Translations under genes and position numbers: made by a program
Notes under the pieces: model-generated
Seen by the model: only the letters and a program-made list of their open reading frames with translations
What the model was told of the DNA's origin: nothing
The model's database searches: none
Shown here: one piece after another, positions 3,628 to 41,076 of the stretch
How the letters are laid out: the number at the start of each line of letters is the position of its first letter
Position numbering within the stretch: the first letter of the stretch is position 1
Virus record (IMG/VR): IMGVR_UViG_3300020045_003383
Location: 1-41,508 of that record
Origin: a virus
Lineage: Duplodnaviria; Caudoviricetes
Length of the DNA stretch: 41,508 nt
Strand: one strand, 5' to 3'

Positions 3628-5913
3628 ATGAAAGTATTAGTAAACTACGAAGCTAGTGAAAAAGGGTACTTGTCAGGCTTAGCTTATGTCTTACGCAAAC
3701 TAGGCATGGAAGCAGTATCTACTCCTACAACTCATACCCCTTTAGAATTAGTACGCAAAGCAAAAGCAGTAGGCTGTCAAGCTATTGTTATATGCAATGA
3801 AAGTACGTTAAGAAACTGCGTGCCTAATCCAAAGGCTACTCTTGATAACTACAGAGGTTCTAAATTAAAATACGAAATACCACTTCTAATTGTAAACAAA
3901 CTAAATCACATTCACACAATAGACCACGGGCAATGGCTTCTTACTAATGACTTGCAGAAATTGCAAAGCATGGAAGTTGCGCCTGTGTTTAACTTCTCTA
4001 TTCTGCAAGACCAATCTCTTTATCCCCAAGTTCTATCTGAGATGCGTAAGTCTATCTTAACTGCTTACGATATTGAAACAATCACTATTCTTGAAAACGA
4101 AGAAGAACGCAGAGCAGGGCATACACTAATATCTTGTGCAAGCTGGAGTATTCTTTTACCATCAGGCGAAATCAAAACTTACGTTCTTCCAATGATAGAC
4201 TTCCATGTAGAACATTGGAAAGGTATGGGCGAGTTTGAAACCGCAGTAGAGTTCTTACGTGAAGCTAATAAAATTGAAGTGCCTATGGTTATGCACAATG
4301 GTATGTATGACTGTACTCATTCTATTGTATACCACGCAGAACCTGCTTTCTTCTGCTTAGACACAATGGCTATGAGCCACGCACAGTATGTAGAACTACC
4401 TAAGTCTTTAGACTTTGTAGCTTCTGTTCATTTACCCGACTATATACAATGGAAAGATGATGCCGCTTCTGCTACTAAAGATAAAGACATTCGCAAATAC
4501 TGGGCTTATAATGCTAAAGATACTTGGCACACGCTTAGAGTTTGTATGGCACAGCTTCGTAGTATGCCTGCCTATGCTTGTATTAATTACGCTGATAAGT
4601 TTAAGCTCGTATTCCCTGCTTTGTATTGTGCATTTGAGGGGCTAAGGATTGACAATAATAGACTAGATGAAATCAGAAGCGAACGTCAAATTATTCTTGA
4701 TAGAAACAGAGATGAGCTTAGAGTTCTATTGGCTGACCCAACTTTTAATCCTGGCTCTTGGCAACAAGTTCAGAAGTATGTATACAAAGTCTTTGGAGGA
4801 GTTCACCCTAAGATTGGCAAGAGTACTAGTGGTACAGATGAAAAGAATTTAGAAGCAGTAGGCGACCAACACCCTTTGCTTGCTCTTATCTGCCATAGAA
4901 TTATTGCATACAGAGAAGCTCAGAAAGCTATTGGTACGTACTGTAACTATTTGCAAAAGCAAGGCAGACTTCTATGGAGTCTTAATCCTTTTGGCACAGA
5001 AACAGAACGTATGGCATGTAACAGTAGTAACTTTTGGTGTGGCACTCAAGTACAGAATATTCCTTACTATGCAAAAGACGCTCTTATTGCAGACGAAGGA
5101 TTTGAGTTAGTAGAAATTGATAACAAACAGTCTGAAGGTAGATGTACGGCGTACCTCGCTCAAGAAACTAATCTCATTACGGCATTAGAATCCCCTACTC
5201 ATGACTTTTATAAAACACTAGGGACTTTGTTCTTTGAAATTCCTTATGAGCAAGTAACAGATTTTTTCCGTAACAAAGTATTAAAAAAGATTGTTCATGG
5301 AACTAACTACATGATGGGGGCTAATACCTTCAAAGAGAATATTGGATTAAAAATCCTACACGAAACAGCTTCAGTACTAGGGTATAAACTAATACCAAAA
5401 CCTTCTGCTAAAAGAAAAGAAGAAAAGACTATTCTAGGTTTTTGTAAAGAACTTCTAGATAAGTACCACGTTCCTTTCCCAAGAGTAAGAGAATGGTATC
5501 AAGAAATCTACCATGAAGTAGCTACTACTCACATGCTTAAAAGTCCTTTAGGTCATGTAAGATACTTCTTTGGGGACATTACCAAACAGCATAATATGCT
5601 ACGTAGCGCAGTTGCACATCAACCGCAAAACTTATCTGTAACTATTTTAAACAAAGGATTCTGGCGTATCTATAAAGACTTAGTAGTACAGCCTATCAAT
5701 GGATTAAAATTAGGTGACGTAAGACTTAAAGCTCAAATTCATGACTCTAATTTTGGGCAATACAGAACAGAGTTACGTGACGTAGTAGTTCCTCTTATGC
5801 TAGAAAGAATGGTTAACCCTGTAGAAATTCATGGCAGAGTATTAGACATTCCTTTAGATGCTAAAGTAGGACAAGTCTGGTCTAAATGTAAAGAATATAA
5901 AGCAAAGGAATAA
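3628..5913 (+). CDS. polA: Family A DNA polymerase with 3'-5' exonuclease and degenerate N-terminal UDG-like domain
   Basis: ExoI YDIET, ExoII HNGMYD, ExoIII YNAKD; motif A DNKQSEGR, motif B R..LKKIVHGTNY, motif C QIHDS. Confidence 0.95.
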   Translation: MKVLVNYEASEKGYLSGLAYVLRKLGMEAVSTPTTHTPLELVRKAKAVGCQAIVICNESTLRNCVPNPKATLDNYRGSKLKYEIPLLIVNKLNHIHTIDHGQWLLTNDLQKLQSMEVAPVFNFSILQDQSLYPQVLSEMRKSILTAYDIETITILENEEERRAGHTLISCASWSILLPSGEIKTYVLPMIDFHVEHWKGMGEFETAVEFLREANKIEVPMVMHNGMYDCTHSIVYHAEPAFFCLDTMAMSHAQYVELPKSLDFVASVHLPDYIQWKDDAASATKDKDIRKYWAYNAKDTWHTLRVCMAQLRSMPAYACINYADKFKLVFPALYCAFEGLRIDNNRLDEIRSERQIILDRNRDELRVLLADPTFNPGSWQQVQKYVYKVFGGVHPKIGKSTSGTDEKNLEAVGDQHPLLALICHRIIAYREAQKAIGTYCNYLQKQGRLLWSLNPFGTETERMACNSSNFWCGTQVQNIPYYAKDALIADEGFELVEIDNKQSEGRCTAYLAQETNLITALESPTHDFYKTLGTLFFEIPYEQVTDFFRNKVLKKIVHGTNYMMGANTFKENIGLKILHETASVLGYKLIPKPSAKRKEEKTILGFCKELLDKYHVPFPRVREWYQEIYHEVATTHMLKSPLGHVRYFFGDITKQHNMLRSAVAHQPQNLSVTILNKGFWRIYKDLVVQPINGLKLGDVRLKAQIHDSNFGQYRTELRDVVVPLMLERMVNPVEIHGRVLDIPLDAKVGQVWSKCKEYKAKE

Positions 5914-27959: not shown

Positions 27960-29486
27960 TTAGAAAGGGGCATTGTCAGCCACTACGCCAACGTTGCCGT
28001 GAGATTGAACTACGTTTAAATTATTTCCTATCATGTGCCAGTATTCCGTACGCATGTCTAGTCCGTATGCTTGAGCGTCTAAGATATCATCTCGATTATC
28101 CTTTGCGCCAAGTTTGTAAGCCATAGCCTGAAAGGTGAATAAGGCTCTTTCTTCTGGATTGTGATGAGAGTAGTTTCCTTCATATAATTCCTGAACAAAG
28201 GCACGAATTCTAGACTCTTTACTTCTTCCATGCGGCTTTAATTCTACTACTTGTATGCCAGTTATCTCTAGTGCAGTAAGATAGTGCTGTAGCCAGAATT
28301 GTAAAGACTGCTGGTAGCCTACAGTTTCTACTCCAATTACTGTTGCGCCTAATTCAATAGCCATAGCAATGGCGGTTTTAACAGTCTGCTCTGGTGTAAA
28401 CTTGCCTGCTGCTGTCTTTAAGACTACGCCTTTGTTATCATGAATACCATGCCCTACTACTACGTTATCATCAGAGGTTTTTCTGTAACCCGCAGGGTCA
28501 ATTGTAATAAATACGCCATCAAAGGTATTAGGATTAAGCTCAGGAATAGGTAATGGTATAGGAAGAAGGCTAGTGCCTACACTTCTAGGGTCATTCATGA
28601 CCTCTGCGTACCATTCGTCTGCTAAGCCTAGGCTCTCATCATGGAAAAAAGACTCCATAAGAGATTCTAAAGAGTGAATTTCTTTCCATAAAGGCTCGCC
28701 GTTCTCAAGAATTGCGCCAGTAATAAGACTAATCCAATAAGGAGAGTCTTGCAATTGTTTTAAAATGCACTTATCCGAATACATATTCCCAATATAGAGG
28801 ACTAAGCGGTTGCCTTTTGTTTCAATAGACTTTAAAAGGGTAGCACCAAACCAAGAAAGCAGAGAAGTTCTTTCAGTAGGACTTTTGTCATTCTCTTTAG
28901 TCTGCATGTCATCGCAAAGAATTACTTCAGGGCGTACATTGTCCTTATTATTACCACGAACAGCAGTCATTGCGCCTCTAGCCTGCAGCATGACGATTAC
29001 GCCGTTATAAACACAAGTCTTTGACTCTTTATTATCTACACTTAGGTTATTCTTCCATGAGCCATAGACGGCTTCCATGTTAGGAGAACCCATTATGTTA
29101 CTTAAGTCATCTATTAGGTTTTCCGCATTAGGCTGGGTTGAGCAGACTACCATGTAAGAACGCGCTTGTTTATAAGCAATCATCCAAGCAAGGATAACTT
29201 TAATAAAGGTAGTCTTTGCATGCCCCCGTGGTAAGCCTAAAGCAAAGCGAAGAATAGCCCCCTGAGCAATGCCGCCTCTTTTAATGATAATTTGGAAGCA
29301 CATTAAATAGAAGTACGGCAATGCAGAAAGCATTACACTTGGAAGTGCCAGAGCAGCAAAGAAGTTAATGTCTACAAAGCCTCTTTCATACGCAGAAGAT
29401 ACTTCCGCAGAGATAGTTAGTAGCTCTGGACCTTCTTTTATCTCTTCTAAGATAGCTTGAGAGCCAGAAGTTTGTAACTCAGCCAT
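27960..29486 (-). CDS. terL: Terminase large subunit
   Basis: Walker A PRGHAKTT, Walker B RPEVILCDD, YIGN coupling motif, nuclease ITIDPAG, GVETVGYQ, DDILDA. Confidence 0.95.
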   Translation of the reverse strand: MAELQTSGSQAILEEIKEGPELLTISAEVSSAYERGFVDINFFAALALPSVMLSALPYFYLMCFQIIIKRGGIAQGAILRFALGLPRGHAKTTFIKVILAWMIAYKQARSYMVVCSTQPNAENLIDDLSNIMGSPNMEAVYGSWKNNLSVDNKESKTCVYNGVIVMLQARGAMTAVRGNNKDNVRPEVILCDDMQTKENDKSPTERTSLLSWFGATLLKSIETKGNRLVLYIGNMYSDKCILKQLQDSPYWISLITGAILENGEPLWKEIHSLESLMESFFHDESLGLADEWYAEVMNDPRSVGTSLLPIPLPIPELNPNTFDGVFITIDPAGYRKTSDDNVVVGHGIHDNKGVVLKTAAGKFTPEQTVKTAIAMAIELGATVIGVETVGYQQSLQFWLQHYLTALEITGIQVVELKPHGRSKESRIRAFVQELYEGNYSHHNPEERALFTFQAMAYKLGAKDNRDDILDAQAYGLDMRTEYWHMIGNNLNVVQSHGNVGVVADNAPF

Positions 29487-32647: not shown

Positions 32648-32760
32648 ATAGGAATGTAATAATATTAATATTCTATTCTATGGTTTATAGTCTTTCTTTA
32701 GAATAGTAGTTTGAATGTAAAAGACTATAATTAAATCAACTTTTTACAAAGGTGTATATT

Positions 32761-33813
32761 ATGTTACTTAATGCTAAGAATTTATTTTTGGGAATAGACT
32801 CCACGATGAAGTCAGAATTCTCTCTTACTTGCCCCAAGACTGGAATTGTTCTTCTAGTACAAACGAATTCTTCTTCCTTAGATTCTGTTTTAAAGTTTGA
32901 GTCTGAGTATGCTTCTTTTCAATGGTGTATTGGTTTGGGAAAGAAAGAATTGGACTCTTTGAATAAGAATACCTTGAGTGGTATTTTACTAACAGTGTAT
33001 AAGAATTTTGACTTAATTCTAAGTAAAGACCCTATTGAAGTACAGAATTCTTTATTAAGTAGTGCTTCTGCGGATACATTGAAGTCTTTAATCTTAATCG
33101 GCTTAGGCTTCACTGAAAAGAAAGCAAAGAAAATTCCTTCTATTAATATTTCTTTTGATAGCCAAAAGACTGTTAAGAGCGCAGAAGAAATGCTTATGGA
33201 AGAATATAAGCGTATTAAAGAAATTCTTTTAACAATGAATGCCAATAGGAATGTTGAAAAGTATTCTTATGATGAGAATTCTGACGAAGAGTATGAGAAA
33301 GTTTATTCTGTTATTGTTAAGAGCAAAGCCTCTAAGAATGCAATTGCTAAGAATGAAATTCAAGAAGCAAAGTCTTTAGCTGTTAAAAGTATTTCTTTCT
33401 TAAAGACTGCTTTAATAGATGGGGGATATGAAAAACTCTTTCAGAAGTATTCTTCTATCTTAATCGCAAAGACTGCCTATACAATTGACGCAGAGCTTAG
33501 AGAGAAACTAATTCTACGCCTAACTCAAGCTAACATGGAAATAGGCGAAGCCTTTACAAAAGAATTCGGACATTGCATTCGTTATCTACAAAAAACTAAT
33601 TCTCTAGTAGGTTCTTCTTCTTTTGTAAATTCAATTGATACACTAAGCCATTCTATGCTAGAAGAAGATATTAAAGAACACAAGGTAGAAACCTTTAGAG
33701 AGAAATTAGCCCGTAAAGCAAAAGAACGCGCAGAGAGAGCTTTGCAAGTAGAAAAGAATAACCTTGAAGGCGATATTTTCTTAACTCAATCTACATTCAC
33801 AAAAGAAGACTAA
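32761..33813 (+). CDS. Hypothetical protein, first gene of early arm
   Basis: Long ORF; start 32761 (AAGGTG upstream) or 32806; LTCPKTG near N-terminus; ETFREKLARK near C-terminus. Confidence 0.8.
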   Translation: MLLNAKNLFLGIDSTMKSEFSLTCPKTGIVLLVQTNSSSLDSVLKFESEYASFQWCIGLGKKELDSLNKNTLSGILLTVYKNFDLILSKDPIEVQNSLLSSASADTLKSLILIGLGFTEKKAKKIPSINISFDSQKTVKSAEEMLMEEYKRIKEILLTMNANRNVEKYSYDENSDEEYEKVYSVIVKSKASKNAIAKNEIQEAKSLAVKSISFLKTALIDGGYEKLFQKYSSILIAKTAYTIDAELREKLILRLTQANMEIGEAFTKEFGHCIRYLQKTNSLVGSSSFVNSIDTLSHSMLEEDIKEHKVETFREKLARKAKERAERALQVEKNNLEGDIFLTQSTFTKED

Positions 33814-33815
33814 TC

Positions 33816-34520
33816 ATGAAAAAAGCTACTGATAATGCATTATTACAATTAAAGAATACTCTTAAAACTAATTCTTACTATTCAAACACAAAGCATATCT
33901 TATATGCAGTAGACTTCTCAATTTTCCACACTGGCAAAGTTAAAAAGTCTTTCATTAAGTCTGGCTTTATCCGTTCTATGCTAATGACTAATAAAACTCT
34001 TCTTGAGTATAGTACATTAGTTTATTGCAATCAGCCTTTTGTTTTACACGTAGAATTATCCTTTCAAAGCAGAATTAAAACAAAAGTCTTAAAAGGTGAC
34101 GCTACTTTAAACAATTGTATTCTATCCTTTCAAATCCATACTGATGGTAAACAGATTGTTGTAGTAAAAGAAGATAACCAGCCAATTAAAACGGCAGAGA
34201 AAAAGAAGGCTAAGAAGCAAAGACTCCACGGTAGCATAATCCCTTTCTCTCCTACAGATTCTTCTATTAATCAAACTTCGTTGCAAGGCAATAGACCTGA
34301 TTGGGTAATAGTAGATGAATATATGAAAGAAGAAGAATTAAAGGATAGAAAAATACAAAAGGATTCTATTCATTTTATGGCTTCTGAAAGACTTAAAGAC
34401 CAAATTAAGCAATTCCATCACGCTAGTAACTACGGAATGTCTAAAGAAGACTTCATAGCTTTAAGAGAAGGCTCATTTGACGTAGAATTCCCAAATAAAG
34501 AAGTAGGAGAAGAAAAATGA
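33816..34520 (+). CDS. Hypothetical protein with C-terminal terminase-like and PolA-like motif fragments
   Basis: HGSIIPFS..SLQGNRPDWVIVDE and KQFHHASNYGMSKEDF. Confidence 0.8.
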   Translation: MKKATDNALLQLKNTLKTNSYYSNTKHILYAVDFSIFHTGKVKKSFIKSGFIRSMLMTNKTLLEYSTLVYCNQPFVLHVELSFQSRIKTKVLKGDATLNNCILSFQIHTDGKQIVVVKEDNQPIKTAEKKKAKKQRLHGSIIPFSPTDSSINQTSLQGNRPDWVIVDEYMKEEELKDRKIQKDSIHFMASERLKDQIKQFHHASNYGMSKEDFIALREGSFDVEFPNKEVGEEK

Positions 34521-34869: not shown

Positions 34870-35277
34870 ATGAGCTTATTAGGACAAGACTTTTCTTCCC
34901 ATTCTTTAATGACAGAAGAAAAAACTTATAACTACCAATTTGAACGAGCAAAGACTTTTACCCTTGACCACTTAGAAGATTTAACAGATGAAATTCTATG
35001 TAGGCAATACAATAACCCCAATACTTACATTCTATTTCGTCAGCTTGATTGGGGTAAAGAAGGCTACAAAGCAATCAAAAGTCAATACTTCATAGACTCT
35101 TTAGTTACTAAAAGCCTTGACTTAGAAATAATAGAATTACATGAAATAACAGAAGATGAGCTAGTTAAAAAGTTTCGTAAAGCTTTTGACTTCATTATAA
35201 AAAGAAGCTATCAAAAGCTATTAGATATGGAATACACAGACTCGTTACAATCAGACTCATTGGAGAAAATATCATGA
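34870..35277 (+). CDS. Hypothetical protein
   Basis: GGAG RBS, in operon. Confidence 0.75.
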   Translation: MSLLGQDFSSHSLMTEEKTYNYQFERAKTFTLDHLEDLTDEILCRQYNNPNTYILFRQLDWGKEGYKAIKSQYFIDSLVTKSLDLEIIELHEITEDELVKKFRKAFDFIIKRSYQKLLDMEYTDSLQSDSLEKIS

Positions 35278-37796
35278 CCTTAGCAGAAAAATTAGCCTTA
35301 CGTAGGCTTCAACAAGACTTAGCAAACAAGCCAGTAGTAGCAGAAGCTCAACCATTAATAGTAAAAGAAGAGAAAATTCTTTCATTTGCAGAAAGGATGG
35401 CTCTTAAAAAACAATCTGCTATGCAGGTAGATGCTTATAAAGAAAGTCTACCAAAAAATGATGCACCTATTTTAAGCCCTTTAGACGCGTTAAAAAATGA
35501 AAGCAATACTAATATAAGCACTTTACAGGAAAACGCGCCAAAATCGGTTTCTATACCATTGCAAGCGGTTTCTAACACTTCATTATTCAATATCGGAAAA
35601 AATACCCAAGAAAACGCGCAGACTATTCAACAGTCTATTACTAAAGAAGAAGTCCTTACTGTAATCCAAGATGCACAAAAGACTCTTACTTTCGCAGAGA
35701 AAATGGCTTTACGCAAAGCAGAGAAGAAAGTAGAAGTTGAGAACGTTCTACCTCTTCTTAATGTAGAGCAACGCCAAGTTGTTGAGAAGTCTTTACCGCC
35801 AACTACTATTCCCTCTCTAACCGAAATGGTTATGCATAGAGAAAAAGAGCTTGGCAGAAAAATGACTTTAGTAGAGAAGATTAATTACACAAAAGAATAT
35901 AAGACTAATTTAGAGCTTATGCAAACTATGTGGACTGTTAATACTACTCAAGGCGAAGAAGTACTTCCAGAAGAAGTCAATGCTGGAAACACAGTAACAA
36001 CAAACTATCCTGACACTGACTTAGTTCCTAACATAGCAGTAGCTATCAAAGAGTCTTTGTCTGAGAAGTTGAAAAGAATTGCACGTGAAAAGGCAGGGCA
36101 TATTCCTCAGCCAGAAGCTACTCCATACGATGCTACTAAGGAGGAAGTAGAAGCTGAAGTAAAAAAGCCTTCTTTGAACGAAATGGCTACCACAAATCAG
36201 ACTATAAGCCCAACGTTCACTAACAAGGCTACTTTCTCATTAGACATTATTCTTAACGACAAGCAACAAGCCGCTGTTGACCTTATAGGCAGTGGTAAGT
36301 CTGCTGTTCTGTTAGGTGCTGCTGGTACTGGTAAGACTTCTTCTGAGCGTGAGATGCTTAAAGCCTTATTAGAATTAGACACTATGAGAACTACTTCTTT
36401 TAAACTAAGTGGCGATAGCCGTGTGGAAGCCCCTTCTGTTGCAGTAGTAGCCTATACTCGCAGAGCAGCTTCTAATTCAGCTAAGGCTATTCTTAAAGAC
36501 CCTATCTTAGCTAACAAACTAACTTACAACATCATGACTATTCACGCATTGTTAGAATTTGTGCCTGTGGAATACTATGATGAAGTAGAAAAGAAGATGA
36601 TGTTCCGCTTCTTACCGCAACGTCACAAAGACGCCCCTCTTACTATTACGCACTTAATCATAGAAGAAGCTACTTTAGTAGGCTTAGACTTATGGGAACA
36701 ATTGTTTGATGCTTTACCACACGGCTGTAAAATAGTCTTCGTAGGCGACATTAATCAGTTACCCCCAGTCTTCGGACCGAGTATTCTAAACTATGCAATT
36801 ACTAGACTACCAGTAGTAGAACTTACCCAAGTCTATCGTCAAGGAGAAGGCTCACCTATCATTACTAATGCCCATAGAATTCTTGAAGGCAAATTCATTG
36901 AGTCAGGAACTACTGACCAAGGTAAGCTAATAGTAATTAGTGGAAAGAATGAGAGAGCTGTGGGGCAAGAGAAGACTGTTCGCGCAGTTAGCTCATTGCT
37001 TGAACAATTCTATGACAAGGAACTCTACTCGCCCGAAGAGGATATGATACTTTGCCCTTACAACAAGCAACCCTGTGGCACTATCAATCTGAATTACTAC
37101 ATAGCAGAGTTCTTAAGCAAAAGAAGAAAAGCCGTAGTGTATCATATTATTGCTGGCTTTAATTCTTTATACTTAGCAGAAGGCGACAAGGTAATGTTTA
37201 ACAAGAGAGATGCTATTATTGTTGAAATAAACCGCAACCCTTCTTATGTAGGTAAAGAGCCTATGCTACATGGTTCAGACTTATCAAGGTTTGGAGTACG
37301 TAGAGTAGGGGAGAATTCTGACACAGACTTAGAAGACTTTGACCTTGTTTCAAGTGAAGAAACTTTTGTACGAGATTATTCTGATATGTCATTAGAAGAA
37401 ATCAAAGCAGAAGCCGCTAACAGAGTATTTCAAGCTTCTCATAAAATTACTATTGCATACGAAACTGGTAACACAGAAGTTATTTCTAGTGCAGGGGATT
37501 TGAATGATAGCAACTTCCAACTAGGCTATGCTATGACTGTGCATAAGAGCCAAGGCTCTGAGTGGCGCAGAGTTTTCTGCTTATTCCACCCTGACCAACA
37601 GCGCAATCTAAGTCGTGAAATGCTTTATACTGCTATTACTCGCGCACGTGAAGAATGCTATCTTATTTCAAAACAGGCTATCTTAGATAGAACAGTAGAA
37701 ATTCAACGAGTACGAGGCAATACACTAGCAGATAAGATTGCATACTTCAATAGTGGCGTAGAACAGAATGACAGCGTGCAAGTAGTTAAAGAGTAG
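35274..37796 (+). CDS. RecD/Dda-like SF1B helicase with ~320-aa low-complexity N-terminal extension
   Basis: LNDKQQAA, GAAGTGKTS, TIHALL, IIEEA, VGDINQLPPV, LTQVYRQ, YAMTVHKSQGSEW, YTAITRA. Confidence 0.92.
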   Translation: MTLAEKLALRRLQQDLANKPVVAEAQPLIVKEEKILSFAERMALKKQSAMQVDAYKESLPKNDAPILSPLDALKNESNTNISTLQENAPKSVSIPLQAVSNTSLFNIGKNTQENAQTIQQSITKEEVLTVIQDAQKTLTFAEKMALRKAEKKVEVENVLPLLNVEQRQVVEKSLPPTTIPSLTEMVMHREKELGRKMTLVEKINYTKEYKTNLELMQTMWTVNTTQGEEVLPEEVNAGNTVTTNYPDTDLVPNIAVAIKESLSEKLKRIAREKAGHIPQPEATPYDATKEEVEAEVKKPSLNEMATTNQTISPTFTNKATFSLDIILNDKQQAAVDLIGSGKSAVLLGAAGTGKTSSEREMLKALLELDTMRTTSFKLSGDSRVEAPSVAVVAYTRRAASNSAKAILKDPILANKLTYNIMTIHALLEFVPVEYYDEVEKKMMFRFLPQRHKDAPLTITHLIIEEATLVGLDLWEQLFDALPHGCKIVFVGDINQLPPVFGPSILNYAITRLPVVELTQVYRQGEGSPIITNAHRILEGKFIESGTTDQGKLIVISGKNERAVGQEKTVRAVSSLLEQFYDKELYSPEEDMILCPYNKQPCGTINLNYYIAEFLSKRRKAVVYHIIAGFNSLYLAEGDKVMFNKRDAIIVEINRNPSYVGKEPMLHGSDLSRFGVRRVGENSDTDLEDFDLVSSEETFVRDYSDMSLEEIKAEAANRVFQASHKITIAYETGNTEVISSAGDLNDSNFQLGYAMTVHKSQGSEWRRVFCLFHPDQQRNLSREMLYTAITRAREECYLISKQAILDRTVEIQRVRGNTLADKIAYFNSGVEQNDSVQVVKE

Positions 37797-37823: not shown

Positions 37824-38114
37824 ATGGCACAAGAAATTAAACCTTTCTATGGCAAAGTAGTTAAGGTGCATCAAAATCACTCAATGCACTCTAATTGCTA
37901 TCCAAAGATTCTTACTTACGCATTAGAAGCTGAATTAGTAGGCTTACGCTTTAAGTCTTCTGCTTCAGACCTAATGACAGATAGACCAGTATCTGATGAA
38001 GCATTAGACTTTTATTACTTCTGCGAAGTGGTAGAATTAAATTGGTTTGAGAAACTATGGTTTGACTTAGGCACAGTGGTAGCCTTTTTAATGCAAAGAG
38101 AATATTATGACTAA
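37824..38114 (+). CDS. Hypothetical protein
   Basis: AGGAG RBS. Confidence 0.75.
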   Translation: MAQEIKPFYGKVVKVHQNHSMHSNCYPKILTYALEAELVGLRFKSSASDLMTDRPVSDEALDFYYFCEVVELNWFEKLWFDLGTVVAFLMQREYYD

Positions 38115-38355
38115 CTTAATTGCAGGGGCTAGTGCTTGCCTTAATGGAATTCCAGTATATGAAAGTAATTTAATTGCTCCTAAACCAGTCTTACGACTAA
38201 CAGAAGAAGTCTTAATATCTGATAGCTTTAGAGCAGAATTTAATGATTGGCTTCTTCAAAAATTTGGAAAGACTTATCCAGCTATTGTTACAGGCGCAGG
38301 AATTTTTATGCACCCAATAGCTTTTAGACAACTTAAAAAGGAAATAATAAAATGA
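38107..38355 (+). CDS. Hypothetical protein with HK97-capsid-like motif fragments
   Basis: LNGIPVYESNLI and IFMHPIAFRQLKK; overlaps upstream gene. Confidence 0.75.
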   Translation: MTNLIAGASACLNGIPVYESNLIAPKPVLRLTEEVLISDSFRAEFNDWLLQKFGKTYPAIVTGAGIFMHPIAFRQLKKEIIK

Positions 38356-40174: not shown

Positions 40175-40495
40175 ATGGGAATGTCAAAAGCTGCAATGAT
40201 ATTACTAAGTATGGGTATGGGAATTATTGCAAACCATGCGCCTAGACCAGCAGAAGCAATAGCTCGTAATGTAGTAGCTAATTCTCAGACCATGAAAAGC
40301 AGATTATTTTCTAAATATAATATTCCTTTTTACGGAAATCTTTTAATTAGAACTTCTTTTACTCGCTCAACTAAGCAGACTAAAAATAGTCGTAATGCTA
40401 TTAAAAAGCATAAGCAGAAAGAAGCTAATAAATTTAGAATTGTTTGGGGCTATGCAGACGACGGTAAATACCGCTACAGGGAGTTAAAATGCTAA
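40175..40495 (+). CDS. Hypothetical basic protein with hydrophobic N-terminus
   Basis: AAGGAG RBS. Confidence 0.7.
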   Translation: MGMSKAAMILLSMGMGIIANHAPRPAEAIARNVVANSQTMKSRLFSKYNIPFYGNLLIRTSFTRSTKQTKNSRNAIKKHKQKEANKFRIVWGYADDGKYRYRELKC

Positions 40496-41076
40496 CCTTT
40501 AAAGAAAAACTAGCCGCTAAAAAATTAGAAGCTGAGCAAGCTACCCAGCTATCTGCGTATACTACAGCCGTAGAAGTTGTGCAAGTAGTACAACAGCCTG
40601 CTGAAATTAAAACAGAAGTTTCTAATAAGCCCTTAACTTTAGCTGAGAAACTTGCTTTGCGGCGTAAAGAAGAAGCCTCTGCACCACCAATTGTTAAGCC
40701 CGAAATCTTTGCTTTAGGTGAGGTAGCCTTAGCCGTTGAAGATGAAAATGCTGGCACAGTACATTCTTTAATTCAAGAGCAATCTGATATTACTGTAGCA
40801 GATATTGTGCCTCGCATTAGAAGTCTTAATGATTTAAGCCAAGCTGATTTAAAGAACGAAATGTCCTTACTAAAGAATGCCTTGTTAGCAAACCCCGAAG
40901 CAGTTGCTCACCTTCTACCAACAGACGTAGGTGACTTAGTAAAAGCCGCTAGGAAACTACTTGGTATGGAAATTGTAGAGTCTGTTAAGACTAAAGGCAA
41001 GAAAGAGAAAACTTCTAAACTTCCTGCCGCAGAAATTATGAGTACAGAAGACATTTTAGGTTTAGTAGATTTTTAA
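40489..41076 (+). CDS. Hypothetical protein with two copies of the TLAEKLALRR-type motif
   Basis: GGGAG RBS; C-terminal helical domain LKNALLANPEAV..LLPTDVGDLV. Confidence 0.8.
   Translation: MLTFKEKLAAKKLEAEQATQLSAYTTAVEVVQVVQQPAEIKTEVSNKPLTLAEKLALRRKEEASAPPIVKPEIFALGEVALAVEDENAGTVHSLIQEQSDITVADIVPRIRSLNDLSQADLKNEMSLLKNALLANPEAVAHLLPTDVGDLVKAARKLLGMEIVESVKTKGKKEKTSKLPAAEIMSTEDILGLVDF

Follow-up and report, generated by a model that had tools for sequence, protein, structure and literature searches.

Bacterial sensors that recognize conserved phage proteins cover most of the phage core proteome (PMC13581612). Two core enzymes are among the triggers, the terminase, which is sensed by Avs1-3 and Upx (PMC13601566), and the family A DNA polymerase, which is sensed by Avs19 (PMC13581612); that both are known triggers of protein-sensing defenses speaks for the original prediction for the locus analyzed here. 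At least 12 of the 14 Avs families studied envelop the folded core of their target (PMC13581612). Avs2 has a large shape-complementary pocket and a bridging ATP. Upx is modeled to thread disengaged strands of the terminase ATPase by beta-augmentation, and its binding is described as independent of sequence and mostly survives mutation of Walker B (PMC13601566). Phages also encode partial terminase look-alikes: vs.8, Ksap1 and Ksap2 activate Avs2 and do not block it (PMC13601566, PMC11564622). Viral mimicry of immune-sensed proteins, including decoys, is already known as a kind, and the protein described below, P0001, would be a variant of it; our literature search, which covered few subscription journals, found no account of phage accessory proteins in which short terminase or polymerase pieces serve as decoys.

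The carrier domain of P0001 and its tail

The window, that is, the whole stretch of DNA analyzed (41,508 nucleotides), is IMGVR_UViG_3300020045_003383, a phage genome of 41.5 kb that is complete and has direct repeats at its termini. Positions 1-127 overlap the last 127 bases, and ORF 41094 runs on through the junction. The minus strand carries the structural genes, and a plus-strand block leads into the helicase and replication genes; P0001, the 234-residue product of the ORF at 33816..34520 (plus strand), is encoded by the second gene of this block. Counts of promoters and terminators around this ORF are at chance level. Two enzymes of the same genome served for comparison, its large terminase (27960..29486, minus strand; phrog_38, E 2.5e-55) and its family A DNA polymerase (3628..5913, plus strand; PF00476, E 2e-29), the latter with a motif B that starts at nucleotide 5284. 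The nearest relatives of the polymerase are those of Polaromonas phage Tiera (52.8%) and EBPR podovirus 3 (50.8%), followed by the PaP2/119X/PaMx41 group at ~39%. In a search for the host, none of the 88 candidate stretches from GTDB genomes proved to hold a terminase of this clade.

Elsewhere in the genome, a short motif, L-[ST]-[FL]-A-E-K-[LM]-A-L-[RK], occurs in several copies in the N-terminal region of the helicase (35274-36250) and in a 195-aa ORF (40489-41076); similar motifs are found in neighboring genes of relatives such as Tiera and L005, and the repeats are possibly a shared docking tag. ORF 38107-38355 (82 aa) carries short motifs that we take to be reminiscent of major capsid proteins; a reading of it as a capsid-protein mimic was not borne out by searches at the family level, by tblastn or by fold.

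P0001 consists of a conserved small domain and a lineage-specific tail. The original prediction had placed the ORF and three stretches within its tail correctly (aa138-168 at 34227-34319, aa192-213 ending at 34454, and aa217-222 at 34464-34481) and had missed that the first ~125 residues hold a conserved family domain of ~100 residues and that the tail occurs in this genome only. Related loci were gathered through terminase and helicase homology, and a profile built from 11 of their small ORFs, with P0001 excluded, matched aa23-123 of P0001 at E 1.2e-10 (N-terminal domain, aa ~23-123; 33882..34184, plus strand). Eight of these 11 seeds were earlier weak matches of P0001, and the synteny evidence is independent of them. 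Upstream lies a conserved 353-aa gene (32752..33813, plus strand) that belongs to a family of 40 ORFs and defines the synteny: its clade homologs, also conserved and 290-560 aa long, almost always have a small-domain gene right behind them, directly so in 29 of 39 other loci, the remaining 10 being explained by a contig end (6), one intervening gene (3) or overlapping ORF calls (1).

A database search with 22 aligned members as query, run over 3,825 candidates of 46-410 aa, added 37 further members of 86-135 aa. This clade-wide, unnamed carrier family now comprises ~70 homologs (L010, L078, P0002-P0038 and others), proteins of 84-145 aa with an invariant F and S-x-Q, whose C-terminal ends vary freely, with up to ~45 extra residues in L010. 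Neither Pfam nor PHROGs nor fold searches yielded an assignment for it. AlphaFold2 predicts a confident alpha/beta domain at aa ~50-120 of P0001; Foldseek returned no match at E 0.001, the best VIA structure match was to ribosome chains (Z 5.5, rmsd 3.1, 80 aligned), and the best E in a PDB sequence search was 4.6.

The ~110-residue tail is found in P0001 only, being absent from all 37 database members and from all 33 ORFs of related loci (26 distinct), and no full-length homolog of P0001 was found in 5.8 billion proteins, 1.84 billion representatives, IMG/VR and INPHARED. Because no homolog carries it, the tail is, on this comparison of sequences, a gain in the lineage of P0001 that lies outside the conserved fold; the possibility raised alongside the original prediction, that the motif segments belong to one fold shared by all homologs, falls away. 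Its codon score of 0.179 is native: 81 in-frame pieces give 0.200 ± 0.066, and 405 off-frame ones give -0.095 ± 0.137, 13 of the latter getting as high as 0.179. The score is native in the coding frame alone, the other frames scoring -0.169 and 0.008. Both motif pieces lie in the coding frame and on the coding strand of this 110-codon open extension. AlphaFold2 gives pLDDT <50 for aa138-170 and a long helix at aa169-204, in a model of the tail built from one sequence, where low pLDDT is no proof of disorder. Between the two pieces runs a charged, predicted helical linker (aa169-197; 34320..34406, plus strand) for which no source was found, and neither it nor aa214-234 had a convincing match anywhere in our searches. 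Fold searches put a name to the tail no more than to the carrier domain. Searching the tail by blastn against all loci and the genome returned only motif codons and low-complexity purine runs, and no other ORF in the 223 clade loci has a comparable piece. The tail is thus far represented by a single sequence, which tells nothing of selection.

Terminase-like and polymerase-like pieces

The first piece, aa138-168 (34227..34319, plus strand), comprises a strand, an 11-residue loop and a Walker B motif, without Walker A. Its pattern, [LF]QG-x3-D-x-hhh-DE, was terminase-like by eye in 107 of the 120 IMG/VR loci listed (11 of 64 parts scanned), and the other 13 loci (6 helicase-like, 7 other) were left out before profiles were built. 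This pattern and the polymerase pattern described below were both designed from P0001, whereas the matrices made from the phage's own clade were not. On a 15-column matrix from 14 own-clade terminases the piece scored 7.6 bits; among 284,715 control windows, 6 did at least as well. Control windows were drawn from 1,149 proteins. Against foreign terminases, the piece stays in register over 28 columns that the pattern does not include (p 9e-4, from 227 of 259,437 windows); of 29 real terminases, 2 have a lower 37-column score than P0001, and the best single terminase match is identical at 12 of 37 positions. On the foreign terminase profile P0001 ranks third of 7,357 ORFs, with 12.7 bits and E 0.014 in 7,443 ORFs; the two ahead of it are unassigned 491-aa ORFs that are identical to each other, and only 1 of 5,000 shuffled tails reaches its score. 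A matrix search of the 223 clade loci (28,050 distinct six-frame segments) returned P0001 as the top non-member at 27.9 versus 12.1 bits, a result that is partly circular; own-clade terminases have a median of 9.4 bits on the same matrix. In the terminase type of this phage the Walker B motif ends in DD.

Alignments to terminase profiles cover aa124-174 of P0001 only, where the Walker B region and the preceding strand are present at motif level. Searched unanchored, aa125-155 had no terminase among its best 50 matches, and the upstream strand is not detectable alone. No Walker A motif or complete ATPase domain was found in P0001 by any terminase-profile alignment or by Pfam or PHROGs, and the C-terminal RNase H-like nuclease domain of TerL was not found either, no alignment running past aa174, 60 residues before the protein ends. 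Two further candidate pieces were rejected. A third, terminase-derived piece at aa208-224 (34437..34487, plus strand) had p 0.006 per window, which loses significance once ~95 windows are allowed for, and its pattern gave no terminase among the 119 matches listed (120 prokaryote-genome loci, both terminase profiles), a weak test with few terminases there. The top matches of a supposed second copy of the strand, at aa182-190, included no terminase.

The second piece, aa198-213 (34407..34454, plus strand), resembles motif B of family A polymerases, with K, H (where motif B has H, F or Y), Y and G in register, an exact match to the pattern K-x3-H-A-x-N-Y-G-M over aa198-208, and F at aa213 in register as in many motif B members. 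Its K, H and Y are spaced as in motif B, where we take them to correspond to 758, 762 and 766 in E. coli numbering. The pattern marked polymerase motif B in 118 of the 119 IMG/VR loci listed (48 of 64 parts scanned), the one exception being a 34-residue stop-to-stop stretch. The gap-free alignment to motif B of the phage's own polymerase (aa553-568) on which the original prediction was built was reproduced, with 6 of 16 residues and 24 of 48 bases identical. A matrix of motif B was built from own-clade polymerases, 7 of them after removal of redundancy, picked by whole-protein homology; on it the piece scored 14.9 bits, a value that none of the 278,970 control windows reached, though the best of them (14.5) came within 0.4 bits. 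Against foreign polymerases, the 19 columns outside the pattern gave -7.8 bits (p 0.018), below all 21 real members, and the polymerase matrix search of the 223 clade loci again returned P0001 as the top non-member (21.7 versus 13.8 bits, partly circular). Motifs A and C and the ~400-residue polymerase domain were looked for in P0001 and not found, and PF00476 did not match it.

Most polymerases of this clade (5284-5316 in this genome) have a motif B that ends in NYMM and in which His takes the place of the sugar gate; HASNYGM is found in a widespread phage subtype. In one relative (L105, G018:C1:40219-42501) the polymerase match is broken by one TAG stop.

P0001 had no terminase or polymerase match in Pfam, PHROGs, NCBIfam or PADLOC; within this set PF03237 and PF03354 are uninformative as a test, as they match nothing in this genome, its own terminase included. 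tblastn against 50,697 phage records returned one unannotated match (E 4) for one piece and none for the other, and of 32 longer candidate proteins searched with aa136-226 none was found at E 10 or better. The expectation that profiles would recognize each piece therefore failed for the standard libraries and held in the motif-level tests, where the non-circular chance per tail is ~3e-4 and ~2e-3. Judged by the own-clade motif matrices and the in-register columns, the likeliest ancestors of the two pieces are a terminase gene and a family A polymerase gene, as originally proposed: we consider it probable that both are real relics of such genes and highly probable that one or both are, with more confidence in the terminase piece than in the other. 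P0001 itself is neither enzyme, which also agrees with the original prediction; it is without Walker A, nuclease and polymerase motifs A and C, and what ATPase or polymerase activity would require is missing from it.

The proposed derivation from enzymes that this phage itself encodes found no support. Other phage lineages are a better fit for the pieces (27.9 bits against the own-clade median of 9.4; NYGM against NYMM), and an origin from the enzymes of this phage or its clade was rejected on the full-length own-clade profiles, which gave a non-significant 3.8 bits for the terminase (E 7.9) and -0.6 bits for the polymerase (aligning aa197-214 only), as well as on the blastn result above. The pieces were likely borrowed from other phages, although the searches found no donor gene for either.

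A second terminase pattern returned 19 loci, which by eye comprise 5 terminases (2 of them confirmed by PHROGs), 1 helicase, 3 exonuclease-like and 2 structural-like genes, and 8 loci (5 distinct) in which a short or orphan frame carries an isolated Walker B piece. Walker B-like pieces of this kind, without Walker A and in unrelated phages, lie at L235:1544-1768, L236:1580-1831, L243:1271-1963 and L374:1369-1596, with duplicates in L237, L247 and L427 and, further, L234/L242. L235, L236, L243 and L374, the last of which came from the [LF]QG scan, look like real genes, L235 having a clear ribosome-binding site, and L244 is without a start codon. L236 scores weakly on terminase profiles (TerL_ATPase E 0.068, phrog_9 E 0.087).

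Readings of the tail

The explanation that we place ahead of four others, tentatively and with less than even confidence, is that the tail acts as a non-activating decoy for protein-sensing defenses. A small conserved phage protein would have gained a tail with foreign-type terminase and family A polymerase pieces; if expressed early, as its gene position suggests, and with its terminase piece presumably exposed and unfolded, the protein could bind and occupy bacterial sensors of both enzymes before the real enzymes are made. Sensors that recognize short or unfolded segments, Upx being an example, would fit best. DSAD1 provides a precedent for competitive blocking of a protein sensor, and the decoy reading gains support from the recurrence of stand-alone Walker B pieces in small genes of other phages.

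It is possible, if doubtful, that the pieces are instead relics without function, brought in by illegitimate recombination at a dispensable 3' end and recognizable only where they preserve bits of famous motifs. Such debris would be in keeping with a tail that is a singleton, with the freely varying and sometimes extended C-termini of the family (as in L010), and with the failure of aa169-197 and aa214-234 to match anything convincing; that conserved motifs are what was spotted may itself reflect ascertainment bias. It is harder to reconcile with a 110-codon open extension that has native codons and both pieces in frame and on the coding strand, with a scan of 2.74 Mb of clade DNA in which nothing antisense or out of frame scored similarly, and with similar pieces in small genes of other phages, some with a ribosome-binding site (L235). 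As debris, too, the tail would be a record of foreign core-gene pieces captured in frame.

We consider it unlikely that one or both pieces are coincidental look-alikes in an orphan tail. No standard search was significant, the third candidate piece failed, and the pattern scans themselves yield chance matches (1 of 119 and, in unrelated exonuclease-like or structural genes, 5 of 19); moreover, a reader might have been struck by any of many motif classes and subtypes, and the finding was chosen out of a very large scan. Coincidence would nevertheless have to account for two pieces within 80 residues of each other at non-circular per-window p of ~4e-6 and 2.5e-5, for the in-register match outside the search pattern, and for a terminase-profile score that shuffling the tail almost never reproduces.

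The resemblance of the pieces to foreign lineages, seen in the matrix scores and in the NYGM ending where the clade mostly has NYMM, would also suit interference, with the pieces as dominant-negative peptides against the packaging motors or polymerases of co-infecting phages, or against proteins that partner with either. A Walker B strand is a buried element and an active site is where motif B lies, so that neither piece is an obvious docking surface, and we hold this explanation to be quite improbable. Very improbable is a decoy at the level of DNA, with the motif codons as spare targets to be cut by the homing endonucleases of competitors or addressed by their RNA-guided, wobble-blind systems: homing endonucleases do target coding regions of essential genes (PMC5871332) and VIPR guides ignore wobble positions, with decoy sites existing in that system (10.64898/2026.10.15.759431), but such a decoy has no need of an in-frame site within an expressed gene, and identity at 24/48 bases to the phage's own polymerase site and at 36/60 to the best foreign site would make a poor shield for the phage's own genes.

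Should the tail be a non-activating decoy, phages may more generally graft short core-enzyme pieces of other lineages onto small early proteins as multi-epitope decoys, the tail of P0001 jamming terminase and polymerase sensors at once and the stand-alone Walker B pieces belonging to the same overlooked anti-defense class; this wider proposal is conceivable, and we regard it as doubtful. If it is true, phages would have, in small early proteins with short borrowed pieces, a cheap and evolvable escape from sensors of immutable parts, in a form that escapes ordinary annotation. Testability is good: natural tail-less orthologs exist, and the sensors are cloned.

Comparison with sensors and known mimics

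Avs receptors, the target named in the original prediction, are poorly supported as the target of a decoy. At least 12 of 14 Avs families envelop folded targets, and vs.8 and Ksap1/2 activate Avs2; because Avs reads folded domains, a 31-residue piece would be a poor ligand for it. Upx would fit a short unfolded piece better than Avs2 or Avs3, but binding that is described as sequence-independent and is mostly proof against Walker B mutation would not explain why catalytic residues are retained. For the polymerase piece, Avs19 is the only named candidate sensor that we found.

Among enzymes, the closest likeness of the first piece is to Terminase_6N-type proteins (L330-L449) with the pattern [LF]QG-x3-D-x-hhh-DE, which have the same in-register strand, 11-residue loop and Walker B as aa138-168; the piece in P0001 is only ~31 residues long and is without Walker A, the coupling motif and the nuclease. 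The second piece matches the K-x3-HASNYGM subtype of PF00476 motif B (the O-helix) exactly over aa198-208, and extends to 11-16 residues without motifs A and C.

Among small phage proteins, vs.8 of T4, Ksap1 and Ksap2 are likewise terminase-ATPase-like, and their engagement of a terminase sensor is known or predicted (PMC13601566, PMC11564622). They are folded, and vs.8 has both Walker A and Walker B, whereas P0001 has a short piece on an unrelated carrier beside a polymerase piece, and no alignment of P0001 contains Walker A, so that a folded ATPase domain of the vs.8 type was not found in it. The ankyrin-repeat ORFs of Bodo saltans virus carry catalytic-domain fragments, DNA polymerase among them, on an unrelated carrier and were proposed as decoys (PMC5871332); they belong to a giant eukaryotic virus, occur as many paralogs and hold 5'-end fragments, and a decoy role is only suggested for them. 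Although DSAD1 (anti-DSR2) targets a tail-tube sensor and P0001 is likened to it in proposed logic alone, DSAD1 is experimentally shown to occupy a phage-protein sensor at its trigger site without activating it (PMC11087589).
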